64,000 nucleotides of DNA, from contig CM059431.1 in assembly GCA_030390025.1 (NCBI GenBank), positions 133,426,001 to 133,490,000 of the forward strand, read 5' to 3'. Below, one piece after another: positions 4,301 to 26,431 of the stretch. How positions within the stretch are numbered: position 1 is the first letter of the stretch; every line of letters begins with the position of its first letter. The notes under the pieces were generated by a model that saw only the letters and a list, made by a program, of their open reading frames with translations, did not search any database and had not been told where the DNA came from. The stretch comes from Squalus acanthias. Its lineage: Eukaryota. A program made the position numbers and the translations under genes.

Positions 4301-5868
4301 AGCTTGCCGTGACGCTCTTGGAGCAGCACAGCGCTCAAGCTGTCTCCGCTGGCAGCTACCTCCAGGAAAAACTCCTTCCCCCCATCTATGGCCCCTAAGG
4401 CTGGCGCGGTCTGCAGATCCCTTTTTAACTTCTCGAAGGCTGCTTGGCAGCCCTCGTCCCAAGACCACTCCACTCCCTTATGGAGGAGTCGGAGGAGCGG
4501 CGCCGCTGTGGCCGCATAGTCTTCGATAAAATCCCTGCAGTAACCGGTCAGTCCCAAGAAGGACCTCACACCCCTTATGTTGTTGGGAATCGGTAACTCT
4601 TGCACCGACTCCCTCCTAGCTTTGTCTATGGCTCTTTCCCCAGCGCGAATGGTCAGTCCCAGGAATTTTACTTCCTGCTGACCGATACGTGCTTTCTTAG
4701 GATTTATTTTAAAACCCTTTCTCGCTAGCAGCTCCAATAACTCGTCCAGCAGTGGTCCATGCTCCTCCCTTGAATCCGTAAATAGGAGCAAATCATCCAC
4801 GTACTGCACTATCTGATTGGGCTGACTAAACTCCTTTAAACTTCCTGCCATACACTGATGGAAAATACTGGGGCTATTGTGGAAACCCTGTGGCAGACAG
4901 TTCCATGTGTACTGTTGTCCTTTGAAAGTAAAGGCAAACTTGTACTGGTCCTCTCGCCTCAGCGGGATGGACCAAAAACCGTTCGAGATATCCAACACCG
5001 TGAACGTGGTCGCGGACGCTGGGATACTCCCTATTAGGTCAGCAACTGCTGCTACCGTGGGCGCGCAGGCGGGAATGTTACTGTTAAGGACTCTGTAGTC
5101 CACCGTGGCTCTCCACGAATTATCCGGCTTCCTAACCGGCCATAATGGGGAGTTCACGTGTGTGGCTATCGGCCTCAACACGCCCTGCTGCACCAAGGAG
5201 GACATTGCTGTCTCCATATCGGGTTCTGCTTCTTTGGGGAAGTTATACTGTTTTTGGGGCCGGGTCATGGGGTCCCCATCTACGCTGACCTCAAACCCGG
5301 TAACCCTCCCACAATCGTGCTTGTGGGTTGCAAACGCGTGCATATTATCTGACACGTACGTTTGCATGTCCGTTGGGACACCTGCGACCATAAGCCCGAG
5401 GTCGTAGCCTCCGGATGGCTGCACGGTACACAGGACCCCTGTTTCTTCCTCCCCCGGAATCACTACTACCTCGCCTTTTTCACTCTTAGCCCCCCAGAGA
5501 CAGTGATTTCTGAGGTCCACGAGGATCCCGTGCCCTGATAGGAGATCGGACCCGAGGATACCTCTTCCACCCCCCTCCTGCCATTCCATCAGTATGCACT
5601 TCCACTTGAGGTGAAGTGCTCCCAAACGAATGGATAGCGGAAGGGAGAACGCGCCAGCCTGTTCTTTTCCCGTGAACCCCGCTAATGTGAATGGGACCTT
5701 GGTAGATAGCGGCGAGTCAAAAGGGCTATCTGTATGGATTATGGTGCAAGAAGCTCCCGTGTCCAACAAATAACTACCCTTCTGTTTCTCTACCTCCATC
5801 TCCACCAAAGGTCGCTTCCACGCATCATAGCTGAGCGGACACAGGTAGACGGGCTGCGCGGGCTCTAG
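1381..5868 (-). CDS. pol: Pol polyprotein: protease, RT, tether, RNase H, integrase, low-complexity tail
   Basis: LLDTGAS protease; LPQGFHNSP and YVDD RT; degenerate RNase H-like FFLEVAASG...SNCERHLLA; intact RNase H IYVDGSS/SAQQAEL/SDS/HKVKAH/GNQQAD; integrase H-H-C-C, QIDYIG, SDQGSHF, GIVERMN, GPY. Frame is open right up to the gag stop (ORF track starts at 5808). Confidence 0.96.
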   Translation of the reverse strand, partial: LEPAQPVYLCPLSYDAWKRPLVEMEVEKQKGSYLLDTGASCTIIHTDSPFDSPLSTKVPFTLAGFTGKEQAGAFSLPLSIRLGALHLKWKCILMEWQEGGGRGILGSDLLSGHGILVDLRNHCLWGAKSEKGEVVVIPGEEETGVLCTVQPSGGYDLGLMVAGVPTDMQTYVSDNMHAFATHKHDCGRVTGFEVSVDGDPMTRPQKQYNFPKEAEPDMETAMSSLVQQGVLRPIATHVNSPLWPVRKPDNSWRATVDYRVLNSNIPACAPTVAAVADLIGSIPASATTFTVLDISNGFWSIPLRREDQYKFAFTFKGQQYTWNCLPQGFHNSPSIFHQCMAGSLKEFSQPNQIVQYVDDLLLFTDSREEHGPLLDELLELLARKGFKINPKKARIGQQEVKFLGLTIRAGERAIDKARRESVQELPIPNNIRGVRSFLGLTGYCRDFIEDYAATAAPLLRLLHKGVEWSWDEGCQAAFEKLKRDLQTAPALGAIDGGKEFFLEVAASGDSLSAVLLQERHGKLRPVVYSSRVLTDVERSFSNCERHLLATHWAVKRSAIFTGLSPITLLTHHTPTKMLLDGRIKDGTVSSVRIARWTLLLSQMDLRVKGLCEPRLAANLVYPGTAHRCSVEGVWDVNIGLRAGIHPTGREIYVDGSSTVSAGERLTGCGVYDPAANLALAIKLPSTMSAQQAELSAVVYVVTHPDIFPTPYTICSDSMFTCNSCTEYLAIWSRRGYTSADGRPLTVKPLLEKILAAVGEEGEIFIHKVKAHSSTEPRGEGNQQADALAREGARNGIFWDPYRTRPMAAIQGRDGNPGNSRVALPLDLKTVQNQDPALKAVLKTIAEGKQVEGPYSTATLSVKEGMLFREEQWVVPQQHRREFLQLAHEGPGAGHPGPEVTWQRVEQAGWWPGLREQVREFCANCLVCAANNPDPQKRKVPMGHVRRVEGPWQSIQIDYIGPLPTTQGGYKYCLVLVDVFSKWVEAFPCRTATALGTAKILVREVFSRWGLPRFVESDQGSHFTGQVMQNTLMLLGIEGKWHVAHNPQSSGIVERMNRTLKEKLRKETRNSPQKWAEVLPLVLMGVRASQSKSTGYSPHEVMTGRLMRTPTHVLAPVLTEVQLQEISRDKFAQTLLERLKQVYEQAAGNMGRQHQGNRLLLEPRKTREWEVGDQVMVRNYARVGSLEPLYMGPYNIVDKASPMVYAVKVPRRTKWFHVNQCKLYKPGAQGKTTGEKPASGDSQPQVGPQGTQAGKAACIRGGDILESHEAFLWGWESDEGEFRELESDEDSDEDEGDLGNERVAPILGIGRTRAADGDPHRVDTEAAGPEHRREELGEAEPAAVRPQGVTVRTSEPEPPALNVPPSGEAGIASEGPPAGPSRAEPQAASPEVREAESAEAEPATVVEPQVVPVEVSEPGPSVLGFMPPTTPRRSGRAPQPRKMWSCPQTAPRRRLKVKAAQIGSGPIATATGCGRSKERVSALPPSGRARSSLLRI

Positions 5869-7677
5869 TCATTGGGTACTATTAGACGGTCCTGCGGCAC
5901 CTACGGGGCCGGTAGCAACCGCCACCTTTCCATGTGCACTCAATAATTTGCGCATGGCTCCCAACACTACTTCGAGGTCGTCGGGAGGGGTGGGTGCACT
6001 AGCTTCCCTAGCAGGGACAGGCGTCTGGGCTCGGGCTGCGGGAATTTTATCCCTGGAATCCTTCCAAGGGTTCCTGCAGTTCTTGCGCCAGTGCCCTGTC
6101 TTCCCACACCCGTAACAAGCATTACTTGCCTGCGGGGCGCGATTACCCTCCTGATGCCACTCCCTTTGATACGGGGCTGCGGGTCGTACCTCATGTACTT
6201 TTCCCTTAAGGGGACGTGTTCCCATACCCCTTATATTGCGATATCCTAACGTGAGTCGATTCAAGACCGACTCTTCCGTAATGTTGGGGTCATTGGGATC
6301 AAACCATGCTTTTGCCTGCTCTCTGACGGCTGGTAAACTGTTGGCTACTATGCACCTAAGCCAATGATTTAAACCGGCGCCGTCCATATCGTCGCGCTCT
6401 AGCGCACCTAGACAGCTGCGCTGATATACTGGCCACAGCCTGTCGGCAAAAACCTTCGGGGGTTCTCCCTCCATCTGCACTGTCTGTCCCACTCTAGCAA
6501 ACGGACCTTCATCGTCCGCCCCCAACACTTCCAGGACCTCATTCTTTAATGCCTCATAAGTCTTGGTTCCCCTCTTGCTCTCGCCCGAGAGACACTGAAG
6601 GATTGAACTGCCTAACGAAAACAACAGCATTTTTGCTGTTTCCCCATCATCGCAGCCGTTAATGGCTGCGGTTTGCTCAACTTCTCTGAAATGTACGGAA
6701 GGGTCGTCTAACTCGGTCAGCTTCCGTACATGATTTATCATAACTCTCAGCTGGTGTGAGCTGTGAGGCAACACAAGCTGGCCGAGGAGATCCCCTGGTT
6801 CCTCCCCACCGTTTCTGTTTGGGCCCCTTTTTATACCCGTTACTGGATACAACGGTCCCTTTTCCACTTCTTTCTCAATGGGCTCTTTCGTTTCTTCCAC
6901 TACTTCCTCCCTTACCCAGGTTTCCGAATAGCTGGGTGGCGCGGAGGGCGCAGTGGCTAATACTTCCTCTGCTTTACTTGGTGGGGACTTCTGAAACTCC
7001 TCTTTTACTAGCGGCTGGTGTGCTGACGGACTGATAAGGCACACCATGCCGTGCGCTTTGTTCACGGCCTTTTTGAGGTGCTCTATCTCTTTTTGGCAGG
7101 CGCTATGATCGGCTCCCTGAAACTTATCCTCAAGGGCCAACTTATATGCCGCCCTAACCCCCGTTAAGCTCTCTTCCTGAGTTCTTATCTGGGCAGCTTG
7201 GCGGGCACATCGTTCCTTTAATCTGCCCTCATTTAACTTTGCCTCAGTGACCTGGCACTCGAGGTAATCTATCCTTGTTTTATGGTGACTGGAGATTTCC
7301 TGGCGTTCTTGGTGCAGCGCACTTAAATTCCTAATGAGCAATTCCCCTCCAGAGACCTTCTCATCCATTTCTCCCTCTAAATGACTGATTCGAGCTGTTA
7401 GCGCTGTAATGACCTGGTTTGAAATCTGGACCTGCCTTTTGTAACACATTAGCCAGACTGCTTTCTCGAGTGTCTTTTTATGTTCTTTACTATCTGTCCA
7501 CCTTTCGGCTGCCTCTAGTGGACTTTTATCCGCTAACAATTCACTTATCCATTTCTTAGTTAGATTAACCTTTCCGAACACATAATCTGCTATCTTTTCC
7601 TGCATAACATTTCGTACAGTCACACCAAAGTCTAACACACTACCCTCTCGCTGCCAGTGTCCTGCCGCGGTCGCCAT
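5869..7677 (-). CDS. gag: Gag polyprotein, 602 aa
   Basis: ATG in good context (gaaaATGG); N-terminal coiled-coil-like region; PSAP/PPSY late-domain-like motifs; single CCHC knuckle CYGCGKTGHWRKNC; directly upstream of pol. Confidence 0.93.
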   Translation of the reverse strand: MATAAGHWQREGSVLDFGVTVRNVMQEKIADYVFGKVNLTKKWISELLADKSPLEAAERWTDSKEHKKTLEKAVWLMCYKRQVQISNQVITALTARISHLEGEMDEKVSGGELLIRNLSALHQERQEISSHHKTRIDYLECQVTEAKLNEGRLKERCARQAAQIRTQEESLTGVRAAYKLALEDKFQGADHSACQKEIEHLKKAVNKAHGMVCLISPSAHQPLVKEEFQKSPPSKAEEVLATAPSAPPSYSETWVREEVVEETKEPIEKEVEKGPLYPVTGIKRGPNRNGGEEPGDLLGQLVLPHSSHQLRVMINHVRKLTELDDPSVHFREVEQTAAINGCDDGETAKMLLFSLGSSILQCLSGESKRGTKTYEALKNEVLEVLGADDEGPFARVGQTVQMEGEPPKVFADRLWPVYQRSCLGALERDDMDGAGLNHWLRCIVANSLPAVREQAKAWFDPNDPNITEESVLNRLTLGYRNIRGMGTRPLKGKVHEVRPAAPYQREWHQEGNRAPQASNACYGCGKTGHWRKNCRNPWKDSRDKIPAARAQTPVPAREASAPTPPDDLEVVLGAMRKLLSAHGKVAVATGPVGAAGPSNSTQ

Positions 7678-7772
7678 TTTCTGTAAGGGTTTGCGTGCGT
7701 GTCTCTCAGCCTGTGAGATTCGCGTGGCTCTGTGCAGCCTGTATGTCAGTGCGGGTTTAGGCCTTGTTGCCT

Positions 7773-7811
7773 GTTCTGGTCTCCAGCCAGTCTGGGAACA
7801 CTAGACACACC
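7773..7811 (-). promoter_or_regulatory. Putative primer-binding region (imperfect, tRNA-Leu(CAA)-like)
   Basis: After the LTR end (...CACTCACA) the sense strand reads GGTGTgtctAGTG versus the Leu PBS TGGTGTCAGAAGTG. Plus-strand GTTCTGGTCTCC (7773-7784) matches the anticodon-stem/variable arm of vertebrate tRNA-Leu(CAA) as recalled from memory. Confidence 0.5.
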
Positions 7812-9364
7812 TGTGAGTGGTTCGAATCACTCGCCCTTACGGTTCTAGACACTGGACTTAGATGCGAGAGCAGTAATGGAGATGAAACTCATGTAGACTC
7901 GGTTGAATGGTACGAAATGGAAAATCTTTATTGCATAATATTCAAGATTACGAAATACATGTCATAAGCACAGATTAATGACAGTACAATCTTACACGCA
8001 GTTATGTAACTAATTCTAGGGAAACGAGGAACGAACGACACACCGTAAATGGGGGCACACATTACAATTATCCTTAGTACTTAAACCCTCCCCTATCAAT
8101 ATCTGTCCTAGCTAGATTCGTAGGATTCGAGACTCATGCTCACCACTCGTGATAACTCGGAGAAATTCCGAATAGCTGATCGGATGTTTTCACCGCAGCA
8201 CCCACGTGTCGATCAGGGGGTCTCCTGGCCCCACTTGTTTACTTGCTTCTGCTCCGGCTAGCAGGCTGGAACGTCTGTTGTTATGAAGATCTGTGTTTGT
8301 GGGTTTCACGTACCAGTCAACACTTAAGAGAATAATCTCTCGGTGTCGTCATGAGGATCTGCCCTGATGGGTTTCACAGACCAGTCAATACCTCAAAGAA
8401 GAATCTTCCGGGGTCCGTTCTTTAAAGTTCAAAGAAGTCTTCCTGGCAAGGAAAATTGTCTATTCGACCTACAGGCGCGGTCGGGGCTTACTGACCGTGG
8501 CGATAAGTATGGTCTTCGTCTCTTCTCATCTCATCTCATCTCTTCTCGGGCCTTTGGTTCCGATGCCGGTTACCAACACAGGTCTTCGTGACACGACACG
8601 AGGTAGATCCGAACGGATCACAAAGTTCAACAGTCTTTTAAAAGAGACACCAGGCAAACAGGAACAAGACGGCGAGTCAAGAACACAGGAGCAGCCACGA
8701 GGATGAACACCAGCAAGATAAGAGGATAAGAGAAAGATGGACGGTTTGGGGCTTGCAATTATAGTGCAAAATCTTCCGTTTCCCGCCCAACCTTAATGTC
8801 TTTTCTTTTGTTTGGGTTTGGCGCTCAAATGTCTTGTATAGGTGATCTCCGTTTTTAATGGGTTTCGGGGCTACTCGTAAATGTCTGAGTACCTGTTAAT
8901 ATTTCTCCCATTGTTTAATCGGTCGGTGTTCTCCCTGGAGGGGTTTTGGGGCCTCCAAGTGTTTTCTGTAACTACCCGCTAACGGCTCTCTCATCGTAGA
9001 GTCGTTGGGATTTTACATATTAATGTCTTTGGATGGGCCCTTGATTACTTGGTACAATAGCCTTTATTCGTACCCGGGAGACCGATTTCAGTATCTATGT
9101 GTATACTGCAAACCCATGATGTCTCGTGTATTATCTTCAATGTGCTGAATCCCAATCGGTCTTGTACAAATGTTTATTGGAACGCCATCCTGTCTGCCTG
9201 TCGAAAAGTCCAGAATGTTCCGCCACGAGGTGCGGCGGCCATTTTACAAGCTGCCTGTGTCCACTTTGAAACCTGACAGCATTCTGCTGAAATAAAAGCT
9301 GTTTGAACGAAACTATGTGTTTTCTCCTTATTTAATAAAATCGCGATATATTGCGAATTCTACA
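7812..9364 (-). repeat. 5' LTR (~1.55 kb); inner boundary inferred
   Basis: TG at 9364 and CA at 7812; TATAA-like box near 8758-8763; AATAAA at 7927-7932 (sense); terminal hairpin then ACA. The 3' LTR is not in the window, so the inner end is unconfirmed (alternatives 7863 or 7892). Confidence 0.7.
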
Positions 9365-9807
9365 GACTTCAGTTACGTGGATAGACTGGAGAAGCTGGGG
9401 TTGTTCTCCTCAGAGCAGTGAAGGTTGGGAGGAGATTTGATAGAGGTGTTCAAAATCATGAGGGATCTAGACAGAGTAGATAGAGAGAAACTGTTCCCAT
9501 TGGCGGAAGGGTTGAGAATCAGAGGACACAGATTTAAGCAGAAGAACCAAAGGTGACATGAGGAAAAGCATTTTTATGCAGCAAGTGGTTATGATCTGGA
9601 ATACACTGCCTGAAAGGGTGGTGGAGACAGATTCAATCATGGTTTTCAAAAGGGAATTGGATAAGTACCTGAAGAATAAAATTTGCAGGGTTACGGGGAA
9701 AGGGCGGGGGAGTGAGACTAGCTGAAGTGCTCTTGCAGACAGCCTGCACGGGTTCGACAGGCTGAATGGCCTCCTTCTGTGCTGTAACCATTCTATTCTA
9801 TGATTCT
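9365..9807 (+). mobile_element. CR1 LINE 3' fragment (insertion site of the provirus)
   Basis: RT C-terminal sequence similar to other CR1 ORF2 ends in the window; ATTCTATTCTATGATTCT tail. Confidence 0.85.
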
Positions 9808-10692: not shown

Positions 10693-11532
10693 GGCCCGGA
10701 TATTCCAATCCCTACGGGTGGGTACGCGCTGTGTACTCACCCGTAGGGACATCGGAAATGCCGGTTTCAGGCATGCACAGCGCATGCGCTGGAAACCGGC
10801 ATTTCCGATCTGTCAAGAAAGCGCTTGACAGAACAAACGCACGCGCAGGAAAGGCAGTGCTACCGGCTCAAAGTTCCGATTTTTTCTCAAATGCTTCAGT
10901 CCAGGTACGTCCGAAACAGCTGCGCCTAGTAAAAGCAGGCGTACAGCCTGCATTCTACCGGAAGAAGCTGCAGGAAGAAGAACACTTTCAGCAGTGGGCT
11001 TGGAAACGGAACATTTTTAATTGTGAAGGTGAGCAAAGTTCTTTGTAGAAAACCTGAGGTAAGTTTTTATCAACTTTAATTTGTTTAAAAACTTTATTGG
11101 TTTTGTATCTTGTTTTGAGTTGTGTAGTTATAAAGAGCAACTCTTGCTGTGTGCAAGGTAATCATTCTATTGAATTAGATTTCATTTTCTTAAATGTGAA
11201 AATAACTGTTTAAAAATGAATTATTTAACACTTACTAAAGTTTTAAAAAATTATGCCAGAAAATATCAATTAGTTATATGTTAACTTTTCCATGCCCTTT
11301 AAAAATTGTATGTATAACTTTGTGAAAATGTTAAAGTACTTAGAAAATCATCTCGGGCGTGATATTGATCAGGCGGGTATGACGTGTGCCCGATCCGATA
11401 CCGCACGTTTCACACTATAGCCCCACGTGATTTTCTAGCCACTCACTTTATTAAAATTATTTTTACAACTCTTTCCATTTTTTCCTTACAAGTACTTCAT
11501 CTGTTTAAAGAGGAAGCCTGTGAGGGAGAAAC

Positions 11533-12650
11533 ATGCCCTTTGACGATGTTGCCCTGATCCTCGGTGCGATTGTGCTTCAGAGAATTGGAAACGCCAGGGA
11601 ACAACAAAGAAGACTGAGGAACCATCACCGTCTCCTGATCAGGAGGAACTACTACCCACCCCAGAGAGTGTACAGGGAGAGGCTGTCATTTGAGATGCTG
11701 TCGGAGGAGTTGTGTGTGAGGAGGTTATGCTTCAGTAAAGAGGCAATCGGCCGACTATGTGACATGCTAAAGGAGGACCTTCAAACACGATTGACGACCC
11801 GCACTGCCTTGTCAGTGAACATGAAAGTAACCACAGCATTGAACTTCTTTGCAAGTGGTCCAACATCTCCCAGAGTGCTGCGTTGGTCTGCATTCACCAG
11901 GTCACAGATGCCATTTTCTGTGGGGCTTCAGAGTTCATAGACTTTGAGTTGTCCACTCGCCATCAAAAGGAGATGGCCCTTGCATTTTATAGCATTGCTG
12001 GATTCCCCAGAGTGATTGGGGCCGTCGATGGAACCCATGTTACATTGAAGGCACCACTGGATGCACCTGTGACATACATCAACAGGAAGGTGTTTCATTC
12101 ATTGAATGTCATGATAGTCTGTGATGCGCACCTCAGGATCCTAAGCGTGAATGCAGATCACCGGGGAAGTGCTCATGACTCCTTCGTCCTCTGTAACTCG
12201 GACTTATATGGCACCCTCAGCACATTGCCTCCAGGATCCGCATGGATATTGGGTGACAAGGGCTACCCACTAAGACCATGGCTGATGACTCCCTACCGCA
12301 AGACCAATAATGAGGCTCAGGAGAGATACAACTAGGCACACGTGTCCACACGGCAAGTGGTGGAGATGACAATCGGGGTTCTGAAATCACGCTTCCGGTG
12401 CCTGGACAGGTCAGGGGGGACCTTGCAGTATTCTCCTCTGAAAGTGGCAATAATTGTGGCCTGTTGTGCTTTGCATAACTTTGCCCTGCAGGAAGGACTG
12501 ACCCTTAACCCTGCAGAGGAGCTCCCTGCTGAAATGGAGGACATGGACGATGCCAATGTGCCTGTGGCCAGGCCTGATGGGGAGGAGCCAAGTGCTGCCA
12601 AATGTAAGGCTGCTCGGGAACTGCTAGTAGCCAACACCTTCACGAGGTGA
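11533..12650 (+). pseudogene. Harbinger (HARBI1-like) DDE transposase, disrupted
   Basis: Three ORF pieces with [35 protein letters not shown]; one frameshift and one in-frame stop. Confidence 0.9.
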
Positions 12651-15175: not shown

Positions 15176-15645
15176 GGGGGAAAAATTGGGTATCGCCCAT
15201 TTTGGGGCGCTGATATCGGCCTGGCGCTAATTATCGCCGCCGACCGCGAAATTCATCTCCAGCGCCCCTGAAGGTGATTAGAGCATTAATCAAGCGCTAC
15301 ACATCTCTCTTAGGGTGTTAACATTGGGGATCGAGGCTGAAGCTCAGGTGATGTCAATTACCTGGTACTCAGACAGACTGGCACCATCCAGTTCTTAAAA
15401 GGAAGGGTCCATCTTGTTGCACAGCCACACCCTGCTCATTGCAGCGTTTGACATCGGCCTGCAAGCAGTTAAACATCTTCATCCAAGATTTATGATGGAT
15501 ACTCAGAGGCCCAGGGAGAGAGCTCGGCAGTTTAGTGACCAGGCATTGGTGGCTCTGGTTGGCGCTGTGGAACGGCGATGGGCAGTGCTGTTTCCAGAGA
15601 CTGGCCTGAGACCATTGCCCCAGGAGTTTACAAGGGTCTGGAGGG
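15176..15645 (+). mobile_element. Harbinger left arm with start of Myb-like gene, split by a CR1 insertion (continues at 25151)
   Basis: TIR GGGGGAAAAATT; RERARQFSDQALVALVGAVERRWAVLFP...VWRE resumes as AQHISSRSLVQRTHTQCRKKFNDL at 25151. Confidence 0.85.
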
Positions 15646-17662
15646 AGCCCAGGAGAGCGAGAGTTCGGAGCTACTAAAACAGCGGGAGCCCAGGTGAGCG
15701 AGAGTTCGGAGCAACTAAAACAGCAGGAGTTCAGGAGAGCGAGAGTTCGGAGCTACTAAAACAGCGGGAGTTCAGGAGAGCGAGAGTTCGGAGCTACTAA
15801 AACAGCGGGAGCCCAGGTGAGCGAGAGTTCGGAGTGACTAAAACAGCGGGAGCCCAGGAGAGCGAGAGTTCGGAGCGACTAAAACAGCGGGAGCCCAGGA
15901 GAGCGAGAGTTCGGAGTGACTAAAACAGCGGGAGCCCGGGAGAGAGCGAGAGTTCGGAGCAACTAAAACAGCGGGAGTTCAGGAGAGCGAGAGTTCGGAG
16001 CAACTAAAACAGCGGGAGTTCAGGAGAGCGAGAGTTCGGAGCAACTAAAACAGCGGGAGCCCAGGTGAGCGAGAGTTCGGAGCGACTAAAACAGCGGGAG
16101 CCCAGGTGAGCGAGAGTTCGGAGCGACTAAAACAGCGGGAGCCCAGGAGAGCGAGAGTTCGGAGCAACTAAAACAGCGGGAGCCCAGGAGAGCGAGAGTT
16201 CGGAGCTACTAAAACAGCGGGAGTTCAGGAGAGCGAGAGTTCGGAACAACTAAAACAGCGGGAGTTCAGGAGAGCGAGAGTTCGGAGCAACTAAAACAGC
16301 GGGAGTTCAGGAGAGCGAGAGTTCGGAGCAACTAAAACAGCGGGAGTTCAGGAGAGCGAGAGTTCGGAGCAACTAAAACAGCGGGAGTTCAGGAGAGCGA
16401 GAGTTCGGAGCAACTAAAACAGCGGGAGTTCAGGAGAGCGAGAGTTCGGAGTGACTAAAACAGCGGGAGTTCAGGAGAGCGAGAGTTCGGAGCAACTAAA
16501 ACAGCGGGAGTTCAGGAGAGCGAGAGTTCGGAGTGACTAAAACAGCGGGAGTTCAGGAGAGCGAGAGTTCGGAGCTACTAAAACAGCGGGAGTTCAGGAG
16601 AGCGAGAGTTCGGAGTGACTAAAACAGCGGGAGTTCAGGAGAGCGAGAGTTCGGAGCTACTAAAACAGCGGGAGCCCAGGAGAGCGAGAGTTCGGAGCAA
16701 CTAAAACAGCGGGAGCCCAGGAGAGCGAGAGTTCGGAGCAACTAAAACAGCGGGAGCCCAGGTGAGCGAGAGTTCGGAGTGACTAAAACAGCGGGAGCCC
16801 AGGTGAGCGAGAGTTCGGAGCGACTAAAACAGCGGGAGCCCAGGAGAGCGAGAGTTCGGAGCAACTAAAACAGCGGGAGCCCAGGAGAGCGAGAGTTCGG
16901 AGCTACTAAAACAGCGGGAGTTCAGGAGAGCGAGAGTTCGGAACAACTAAAACAGCGGGAGCCCAGGAGAGAGCGAGAGTTCGGAGCTACTAAAACAGCG
17001 GGAGCCCAGGAGAGAGCGAGAGTTCGGAGCTACTAAAACAGCGGGAGCCCAGGAGAGCGAGAGTTCGGAGCTACTAAAACAGCGGGAGCCCAGGAGAGAG
17101 CGAGAGTTCGGAGCTACTAAAACAGCAGGGAGCCCAGGAGAGCGAGAGTTCGGAGCAACTAAAACAGCGGGAGCCCAGGTGAGCGAGAGTTCGGAGCTAC
17201 TAAAACAGCGGGAGCCCAGGAGAGCGAGAGTTCGGAGCTACTAAAACAGTGGGAGCCCAGGTGAGCGCGAGTTCGGAGCTACTAAAACAGCGGGAGCCCG
17301 GGAGAGAGCGAGAGTTCGGAGCAACTAAAACAGCGGGAGTTCAGGAGAGAGTGAGAGTTCGGAGCAACTAAAACAGCGGGAGTTCAGGAGAGAGCGAGAG
17401 TTCGGAGCAACTAAAACAGCGGGAGCCCAGGTGAGCGAGAGTTCGGAGCAACTAAAACAGCGGGAGCCCAGGAGAGAGCGAGAGTTCGGAGCAACTAAAA
17501 CAGCGGGAGTTCAGGTGAGCGAGAGTTCGGAGCTACTAAAACAGCGGGAGCCCAGGAGAGAGCGAGAGTTCGGAGCTACTAAAACAGCGGGAGTTCAGGA
17601 GAGCGAGAGTTCGGAGCAACTAAAACAGCGGAGTTCAGGAGAGCGAGAGTTCAGGAGAGCGG
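15643..17662 (+). repeat. 41-bp tandem array (~49 copies) forming the CR1-A 5' end
   Basis: Unit GAGCGAGAGTTCGGAGCTACTAAAACAGCGGGAGCCCAGGA with recurring variants; no unique spacers. Confidence 0.95.
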
Positions 17663-25413: not shown

Positions 25414-25585
25414 GAACCTTCCCGCCGATCCTCATATCCCTTGATTCTCTTAGAGTCCAAAAATCTATCGATCTCAACCTTGGATATATTCAACGACTGA
25501 GCATCCACTCTGGAGTTGAGAATTCTGAAGATTCACAATCCTCTAAGTGAAGAAATTCCTCCTCATCTCAGTCCTAAATGGCTGA
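25414..25585 (-). mobile_element. CR1 3' fragment, host of CR1-C (continues 31293-31660)
   Basis: Reverse-complement RT C-terminal sequence that resumes after 31292. Confidence 0.7.
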
Positions 25586-25591
25586 CGCTTA

Positions 25592-26207
25592 AGCGTCGGC
25601 GGGAGTTTCAGCGGCGGCAGTGGGCCTATAAAAGGCTCCAGAGACCAGGTAAGGCCTCAGAGTGTCGGCGGGTCTTTCAGCGGCGGCAGTGGGCCTGTAA
25701 AAGGCTCCAGAGACCAGGTAAGGCCTCAGAGCGTCGGCGGGAGTTTCAGCGGCGGCAGTGGGCCTGTAAAAGGCTCCAGAGACCAGGTAAGGCCTCAGAG
25801 TGTCGGCGGGAGTTTCAGCGGCGGCAGTGGGCCTGTAAAAGGCTCCAGAGACCAGGTAAGGCCTCAGAGCGTCGGCGGGAGTTTCAGCGGCGGCAGTGGG
25901 CCTGTAAAAGGCTCCAGAGACCAGGTAAGGCCTCAGAGCGTCGGCGGGAGTTTCAGCAGCGGCAGTGGGCCTGTAAAAGGCTCCAGAGACCAGGTAAGGC
26001 CTCAGAGCGTCGGCGGGAGTTTCAGCGACGGCAGTGGGCCTATAAAAGGCTCCAGAGACCAGGTAAGGCCTCAGAGCGTCGGCGGGAGTTTCAGCGGCGG
26101 CAGTGGGCCTGTAAAAGGCTCCAGAGACCAGGTAAGGCCTCAGAGCGTCGGCGGGAGTTTCAGCGGCGGCAGTGGGCCTGTAAAAGGCTCCAGAGACCAG
26201 GTAAGGC
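25592..26207 (+). repeat. 69-bp tandem array (9 copies) at the CR1-C 5' end
   Basis: Unit AGCGTCGGCGGGAGTTTCAGCGGCGGCAGTGGGCCTRTAAAAGGCTCCAGAGACCAGGTAAGGCCTCAG. Confidence 0.95.
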
Positions 26208-26431
26208 GAACCAGTCTCCGAACTCAGAGGGAAAAATAATCGAAGTGTGACGTCACCAAAAAGCAGGTAAGTGATTGGTTGGTGAGAATTTCTCTCTAAG
26301 CTTAAATTCTGTGGTGTTAAATTTCTAGGGTCTCTGTGGTGTAGTGGGGACAGTTGGTAAATAAAGCGTCCTAGAGTATATCTGTAACTGGGGTATTGAA
26401 TACATTTTTAATTTAATTAAAGGAGTAGGTC

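Follow-up and report, generated by a model that had tools for sequence, protein, structure and literature searches.

A UGA-CUAG gag-pol junction with a long predicted stem-loop in a retroviral element of Squalus acanthias: a probable readthrough signal

How is Pol produced by a retroviral element in which gag and pol share one reading frame and have a single stop codon between them? This question is raised by a locus of Squalus acanthias located in a stretch of 64,000 nucleotides (GenBank assembly GCA_030390025.1, contig CM059431.1, positions 133,426,001 to 133,490,000), which is called the window here; all coordinates are those of the window, and the element is encoded on its minus strand. 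An earlier reading made from the letters alone, referred to below as the sequence-only reading, had claimed that gag ends with CAA TGA directly followed by CTAG, that pol continues in the same frame, and that this lineage makes Pol by readthrough of UGA. The analysis presented here indicates that gag and pol are split by UGA-CUAG, at which Gag-Pol would probably be formed by readthrough of a few percent, likely aided by a predicted stem-loop of about 220 nt. Considered separately, the synthesis of Pol by readthrough of UGA is very probable, while a stimulatory role of the predicted stem-loop is somewhat favoured.

The gag-pol junction and the start of Pol

The gag gene (7677-5869, with its ATG at 7677) was delimited by its open reading frame (ORF) and by a domain search, and codes for a protein of 602 amino acids with one CCHC zinc knuckle. 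It ends with CAA at 5874-5872 and TGA at 5871-5869, and the latter is immediately followed by CTAG at 5868-5865. The stop codon and its context (5871-5865), a putative readthrough site, read UGA CUA GAG with an A at position -1. The pol gene (5868-1381) continues in the frame of gag with 1495 codons and no internal stop. In the 1495-amino-acid product, a protease, a reverse transcriptase (RT) with the YVDD motif, a tether, an RNase H, an integrase, an SH3-like domain and a low-complexity tail were identified from Pfam and the ORF. When gag and pol are joined across TGA, a fusion of 2098 amino acids results, and both the junction and this fusion were found as the sequence-only reading had described them.

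A -1 or +1 frameshift was considered as a route to Pol and was rejected. In a span of 300 nt to each side of the junction, the two remaining frames are interrupted by 8 and 11 stops, respectively, and the sole slippery heptamer detected in the region 5700-6100 is located at 5725, about 145 nt downstream; this route is closed because the frames are filled with stops and no slippery heptamer lies closer. Only 4 of the 2170 TGA trinucleotides in the window precede CTAG, and within the element this applies to one of 116, which is the one at the gag-pol junction. Of the sense codons of gag-pol, 682 are one change away from a stop, and a single one of them would yield TGA-CTAG. A second junction of this kind was absent from the window in a pattern scan.

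Type II (alphavirus-like) readthrough sites are characterized by UGA followed by CUA or CGG, by an extended stem-loop on the 3' side whose start lies at about +9 to +16, and by an in-frame ORF without a usable start of its own. At the junction TGA CTA G is present, the extended stem-loop is present by prediction only, and the ORF of 1495 codons has its first methionine within the protease. The UAG followed by GGR of the gammaretroviral type III site is not found, and neither is the arrangement of the spumavirus type, where pol has a start codon of its own in a different frame. By its sequence features, the junction would be grouped with the type II (alphavirus) sites and not with the type III site of murine leukaemia virus (MLV).

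The first Met of Pol is residue 24, and the DTG of the protease is located at residue 36. Pol residues 16-46 align with residues 5-35 of HIV-1 protease (E-value about 0.1 for the single domain and 0.003 for the best monomer), and the WKRPLV and LLDTGA motifs are in register despite these weak E-values. In this alignment Met24 corresponds to residue 13 of the HIV protease. The Pfam RVP match begins at Pol residue 17 and the relative P0159, a RefSeq model from Latimeria, aligns from residue 9, both upstream of Met24. As judged from these alignments, the protease coding region begins upstream of the first Met of Pol, and since this Met lies inside the protease, Pol needs the codons that precede it. 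Retropepsins need their N-terminal strand for dimerisation; a start at Met24 would result in the loss of this strand.

In the search with Gag, two relatives were identified among 7998 candidates, namely P0001 from the skate Rhinoraja longicauda with 53% identity to the window Gag, and P0002 with 43%. Both end in Q at the final column of the window Gag. The cluster of P0001 comprises four members, three of which (P0001, P0004 and P0005) share the C-terminus, while P0003 is a partial protein of 334 amino acids. Because relatives at this distance stop at the same column, a private nonsense mutation, which had been named as a refuting case in the sequence-only reading, is unlikely. Longer, fused relatives of Gag were not found in a separate search, rated as weak by the search tool itself. 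For Pol, 10 of the 11 closest relatives are called as proteins starting in or adjoining the protease, and the remaining one is P0159. The P0006 cluster (24 members, from frogs), P0157, P0158 and P0007 are intact-looking Pols of endogenous retroviruses (ERVs) that are annotated as 'NYNRIN-like' or 'Gypsy integrase-like'; they are without the N-terminus of the protease, since they start 3 residues before its DTG.

On the DNA level, contigs from 4 of 20 matching sequencing runs, representing four organisms and four studies, were placed on 5450-6250. Contigs of all four runs (X3, X10, X11 and X13) span the junction and no joint falls there; four listed contigs, three from X10 and one of 158 nt from X11, bridge it ungapped. 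None of the matching runs is registered as RNA; X11 is possibly RNA. Among the 40 of 131 variants listed, none is located within 5817-5934. Among the 22 of 58 loose ends listed, some lie behind 5872 in X3, X11 and X13 or behind 5876 in X10, and others before 5837 in X10, X11 and X13. Divergent contigs match only the island from 5837 to 5872 or 5876, which consists of the stop and the next approximately 32 nt; because loose ends flank this island, distant copies appear to resemble the window there and to diverge on both sides. An X10 contig of 896 nt aligns with 5815-5876 (8 differences in 62 positions) and with 5615-5721 (22 in 107), and does not align across the stretch encoding the catalytic DTG. 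The low contig depth at 5774-5800 is an effect of repeat skipping and was not used. Scans of viral contigs and of metagenome contigs revealed no DNA loci of relatives.

The predicted stem-loop downstream of the stop codon

A rod-like, unbranched stem-loop of about 220 nt (5866-5646) was predicted downstream of the stop by minimum free energy (MFE) folding, with 84 pairs in 232 nt. The fold of 5871-5640 has an energy of -95.8 kcal/mol, compared to -72.6 +/- 4.4 for shuffled sequences (z -5.26), and none of 200 shuffles was as stable. Permutation of synonymous codons in the region gave a mean of -73.1, and none of 300 permutations folded as well. When the element was scanned in 158 windows of 232 nt (step 58, 14 shuffles per window), the one starting at the stop had the lowest z (-6.8), followed by its overlapping neighbour, window 5813, with -6.3; by raw energy, the stop window is not the lowest of the 158. 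The basal duplex alone is less exceptional, being equalled by 14 of 1000 synonymous recodings and by 5 of 200 other positions.

For the core helices 5855-5852/5656-5659 and 5845-5840/5669-5674, pair probabilities reach 0.96-1.0 in each of three contexts. When 8 nt after the stop are kept unpaired in the folding, the stem begins at +12 (5860) and pairs with 5650 onward; in the MFE fold the UGA itself is unpaired. The sequence-only reading had proposed that about 100 nt downstream be folded in search of a stimulatory structure. At such lengths none was found, with folds of 42-141 nt from the junction giving z from -1.05 to +1.5 and six 60-nt windows from -1.6 to +1.2; a structure was obtained at 232 nt, and the rod appears only once the 3' arm at 5690-5645 is included. 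A simple scan for an H-type pseudoknot was not significant, since 15 of 200 shuffles score equally. In the region 5400-9500, Rfam gave nothing at the gathering score and no selenocysteine insertion sequence (SECIS), with one weak match to a snoRNA (E 0.11). Other structured 232-nt windows on the minus strand were seen at 6103, 3261, 4073 and 5465 with z of about -4, one of them being the last 230 nt of gag.

In the proposed mechanism, a near-cognate tRNA would decode UGA at a few percent, by analogy to the alphaviruses and to the human genes with UGA-CUAG. The CUAG context would account for a basal level of leakiness, which in mammalian cells is about 1.3-1.5%, and a stem positioned at the mRNA entry channel, about 8 nt downstream, would raise it. 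The level of readthrough would then set the ratio of Gag to Gag-Pol. UGA-CUA alone was reported to give about 1.5% readthrough (PMC4132726), and for UGACUAG a value of at least about 1.3% has been given. Extended stem-loops were shown to raise readthrough 9.5-fold in Venezuelan equine encephalitis virus (VEEV) and 3.2-fold in Sindbis virus (SINV) (PMC13517186).

Alternative explanations and opposing evidence

It is possible, although not the explanation preferred here, that readthrough is real and works on UGA-CUAG alone, with the rod serving in packaging or dimerisation, acting as a shield from nonsense-mediated decay, or being incidental. The reported leakiness of UGA-CUA by itself speaks for this, and the stem-loop that follows UGA-CUA in PSIV gave no stimulation, while the effect in chikungunya virus (CHIKV) was left undecided (PMC13517186). 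In addition, the interior of the rod stands out no less than its base, as seen from window 5813, which is beyond the need of a stimulator, and no covariation of its pairs was seen among the variants listed. However, the rod begins at the stop, spaced by 8 nt as known stimulators are, and the island kept in divergent contigs (5837-5872) coincides with the stop and the 5' arm of the rod. A role of the rod in stimulating readthrough is somewhat favoured.

For the remaining explanations, the TGA would have to be a plain stop, a mutation, or a codon recoded by other means. A foamy-like Pol, made from a spliced mRNA or from an internal start with TGA as a true stop, is improbable. At 5831, 38 nt past the stop, lies the end of an acceptor-like AG with 12 of 17 pyrimidines, and a rare splice there would be compatible with the present data; however, the ATGs first met beyond 5831 are out of frame, no contig joint falls at the junction, which the 158-nt X11 contig crosses ungapped, and an internal start at Met24 drops the N-terminal strand of the protease. 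The foamy-like route to Pol that the sequence-only reading had raised, by a spliced mRNA, is likewise unlikely from the position of the first Met, and spumaviruses have pol in a frame other than gag with its own start codon (PMC8278194), whereas the pol of the window shares the frame of gag. It is very unlikely that the TGA is a nonsense mutation private to this copy, arisen for example through CpG decay in a gag-pol frame that was ancestrally fused. Fused forms do exist, as in P0159 and in 10 of 24 lokiretrovirus entries annotated in this way, and in Loki-Pfl the corresponding position is taken by a sense codon with CUA behind it. Against this stand the common end of the Gag relatives at 53% and 43% identity, the lack of any other break in 2098 gag-pol codons, the single near-stop codon in 682 with a TGA-CTAG context, and the search, weak as it was, that found no longer fused Gag relatives. 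There is hardly any likelihood that UGA is recoded by rod-guided A-to-I editing or by insertion of selenocysteine. A long rod is a substrate of the ADAR type, and the amber/W site of hepatitis delta virus is edited by ADAR on such a rod; however, the MFE fold leaves the UGA unpaired, ADAR least favours a G as the 5' neighbour, and for selenocysteine no SECIS was detected at the Rfam threshold in 5400-9500. Readthrough of UGA, as the sequence-only reading had suggested, is supported as the best explanation of how Pol would be made.

Several points weigh against readthrough at a conserved UGA-CUAG signal with a stimulatory rod. The CUAG context is not universal at UGA junctions, since XtERV-S, SSSV, ZFERV and RMEV differ. 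In P0159 a Gag-like part is fused to Pol without a stop; this N-terminus matches the window Gag with an E-value of 0.002, and the junction may be a genuine sense one or may reflect a gene model in which a stop is passed over. The contig comparison gives no codon spelling for single contigs. With regard to the rod, structure is found throughout the element, with a median z of -1.4 and 19 of 158 windows at z of -3 or below. The fold length of 232 nt was picked after a weak hint from a duplex scan, namely pairing of the first 40 nt with sequence located 150-220 nt downstream (equalled in 24 of 500 shuffles and at 5 of 200 other positions), and the window scan and the synonymous controls were run for that reason. 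Finally, 11 variants are listed within the rod, of which 4 are at unpaired sites, 5 keep a pair and 2 break weak pairs; since transitions at paired third positions keep the pair in 33 of 56 cases as a base rate, the 5 of 7 pairs kept by natural variants do not significantly support pairing, and no two-sided, compensatory change is among these 11.

Related readthrough systems and the identity of the element

The nsP3-nsP4 junctions of the alphaviruses SINV, o'nyong-nyong virus (ONNV), CHIKV and VEEV resemble the junction of the window in having UGA followed by CUA, extended to UGA CUA G in ONNV, and in a long-range stem starting at +9 to +16, and the alphavirus polymerase is made by readthrough (PMC13517186). 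The mention of UGA-CUA for some alphaviruses in the sequence-only reading is correct for SINV and ONNV. Some alphaviruses carry a sense codon at the readthrough site, and the start of the stem at +12 is common to the window, VEEV and MLV (PMC13517186). Alphaviruses belong to an unrelated virus order and represent type II of Beier and Grimm with an extended stem-loop; their structures, which have been tested, measure 126-177 nt and have a stem at the base but are mostly open inside (PMC13517186), whereas that of the window is a predicted continuous rod of about 220 nt with 84 pairs.

In MLV and other gammaretroviruses the signal serves the same purpose as proposed here, is placed likewise between the zinc knuckle and the DTG, and has the same 8-nt spacer. 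However, MLV uses UAG-GGA and an H-type pseudoknot of 50 nt, in line with the UAG and pseudoknot named for gammaretroviruses in the sequence-only reading, while the window has UGA-CUAG and a long predicted rod. To our knowledge, the MLV pseudoknot is the one retroviral readthrough signal that has been tested. Among the retroviruses of aquatic hosts, UGAAGA is present in SSSV, UGACGA in ZFERV, UGAAGU in RMEV, TGA-CAGG in XtERV-S and UAGGGC in snakehead retrovirus (SnRV) (PMC13517186, PMC8278194). SSSV, ZFERV, RMEV and XtERV-S share with the window one frame, one stop, a proposed suppression and a non-mammalian host; unlike the window, none of these four, nor SnRV, has CUAG, and the accessible text of the review names no downstream structure for them. 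The same 2026 review describes epsilonretroviral readthrough as unverified and its cis elements as unclear, and gives the fish and frog UGA cases as hexamers only (PMC13517186). SnRV was placed among the stop-suppressing genomes (PMC1224870).

The vertebrate genes with readthrough at UGA-CUAG include AQP4, already named in the sequence-only reading, OPRK1, OPRL1 and MAPK10 (PMC4132726). Their heptamer is identical to that of the window; they give cellular C-terminal extensions, whereas an enzyme polyprotein of 1495 amino acids is encoded in the window. MDH1, cited in the sequence-only reading for its readthrough context, carries UGACUAGAC, from which UGACUAGAG of the window is one letter off. 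LDHB is also among the UGA-CUAG readthrough genes.

The heptamer was identified in further retroviral lineages, among them the lokiretroviruses, which are sister to all retroviruses. TGACTAG occurs at least 17 times in the supplement that accompanies the lokiretrovirus paper (PMC7947760), where line breaks can hide motifs, and four of these lie just before the protease region. These four belong to Loki-Ofa, Cne, Pyo and Sau (4 of 24 entries), for which by our own count the pol start of the authors shares the frame of the stop; the printed Gag also ends at the TGACTAG stop in the case of Ofa, Pyo and Sau. Of the 24 entries, 10 are annotated with a fused gag-pol and 14 with separate genes, the junction being seen in 4 of the 14, and a search of the supplement with six motifs gave no further junction. 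In the fused Loki-Pfl, a sense codon followed by CUA is found where these four have the stop, like the stop/sense polymorphism of alphaviruses. In their available text, neither the main article (PMC7947760) nor the Odin paper (PMC9040795) mentions a stop codon, readthrough or frameshift, and the former does not mention shark; the review PMC13517186 does not mention lokiretroviruses.

For the frog provirus XtERV-S, it was reported that TGA splits gag and pol, and suppression was proposed (PMC8278194). In supplements 3 and 5 of that paper, two copies of XtERV-S have TGA-CAGG, and in the file for the African bullfrog the protease is preceded by TGA-CTAG. A second stretch of the bullfrog file (supplement 5) has TGA-CTAA, showing that the junction varies within one frog lineage. 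The African bullfrog provirus is a class III relative of XtERV-S, and in the accessible text its TGA-CTAG goes without remark (PMC8278194).

For the gag-pol junction of retroviruses, no description of UGA-CUAG or of an extended stem-loop was found in the literature searched, with most subscription papers outside its reach. Because UGA junctions have already been printed for SSSV, ZFERV, RMEV and XtERV-S, the new part is not the UGA but the CUAG context together with the long stem-loop. The locus offers a concrete and testable signal, consisting of the leaky-stop heptamer of vertebrates and a long predicted stem-loop at the canonical spacer, and the same heptamer is present in sequences already published for two further retroviral lineages of deep origin. 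It can tentatively be proposed that retroviruses have a third, widespread and so far unrecognised route to Pol, consisting of UGA-CUAG and a long stem-loop and used in Huo-like elements of cartilaginous fish, class III elements of frogs and lokiretroviruses. Under this doubtful proposal, the signal might be ancestral or have been re-invented repeatedly, with the UAG-pseudoknot of MLV and the -1 frameshifts being derived, and the rod would be the largest readthrough stimulator so far observed in an animal virus. If readthrough at the signal of this locus is true, one recoding solution would be common to retroviruses and alphaviruses, and many 'NYNRIN-like' models from frogs, coelacanth and skate, whose start lies within the protease, would each represent one half of a readthrough product, annotated wrongly.

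The identity of the element was examined with its RT. The RT tree consisted of 73 rows, comprising the 62 closest of 242 usable sequences plus Loki-motif and Gypsy rows, and contained no named SnRV row; the Loki label refers to a motif taken from the supplement of the lokiretrovirus paper. The window was found in a retroviral clade of 59 rows (support 98/97), apart from a clade of 6 rows that includes 5 with the Loki motif (100/98). Its neighbours are Pols from frogs and coelacanth with 54-56% RT identity, and P0028, which has the SnRV motif, is located in the same open fork. Compared by eye with the alignment in the supplement, the RT motifs of the window are unlike seven Loki RT passages (six entries) and like the SnRV row. 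The element is likely a SnRV-related retrovirus of clade Huo, as judged from its sequence. Clade Huo comprises SnRV-related, class III retroviruses (PMC6001957), and SnRV-like ERVs are present in elephant shark (PMC4422223). A lokiretrovirus identity was considered and rejected on the RT motifs and on the position in the RT tree.

Lokiretroviruses (PMC7947760) share the dual RNase H and the gag-pol-env order with the window, which in contrast has SnRV-like RT motifs and lies outside the Loki-motif clade. The Pfam matches RT_RNaseH (Pol residues 497-602) and RNase_H (650-792) correspond to the tether and the second RNase H, an arrangement common to all retroviruses. A lokiretrovirus would have an integrase closest to CGIN1/NYNRIN; the best named matches in the protein search bear the label NYNRIN-like. 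Beyond the SH3-like domain, the C-terminus of Pol (about 2190-1381) is an acidic, Pro/Ala/Glu-rich tail of approximately 270 amino acids with a duplicated EPAxV.PQ.V.V..SEP motif, and Pol relatives span at most 82% of the query. The env ORF (1243-2) is truncated by the start of the window, and an RQRR cleavage site lies close to this end. Env, which is cut about 30 amino acids past RQRR, gave no match in Pfam or in the ESM Atlas; the lokiretrovirus Env, in comparison, is paramyxovirus F-like with an RXKR site. In the N-terminal half of Env, ahead of the RQRR site, a Cys...Trp...DEGIYVC pattern is present, which we take to be immunoglobulin-like.

Upstream of gag, a probable 5' long terminal repeat (LTR) was delimited at 9364-8960 from the sequence and a motif scan; it starts with TG, ends with CA and contains AATAAA at 9178 and 9068, and the 3' LTR would lie beyond the window. 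A host repeat (family D10) begins at 9367 and adjoins it. Two nucleotides past the LTR end, the motif scan revealed a candidate primer-binding site (8957-8948), presumably a match to tRNA-Thr. The leader from this candidate site to the gag ATG (8947-7678) comprises about 1270 nt, with a GATGA repeat near 8540 and AATAAA at 7932. On the plus strand of the window, broken transposase-like frames with a GAVDGTH motif, presumably of the Harbinger/PIF type, are located at 11524-12650. A 41-nt satellite with at least 36 copies and a 69-nt tandem array were observed at 15530-17000 and 25523-26281.

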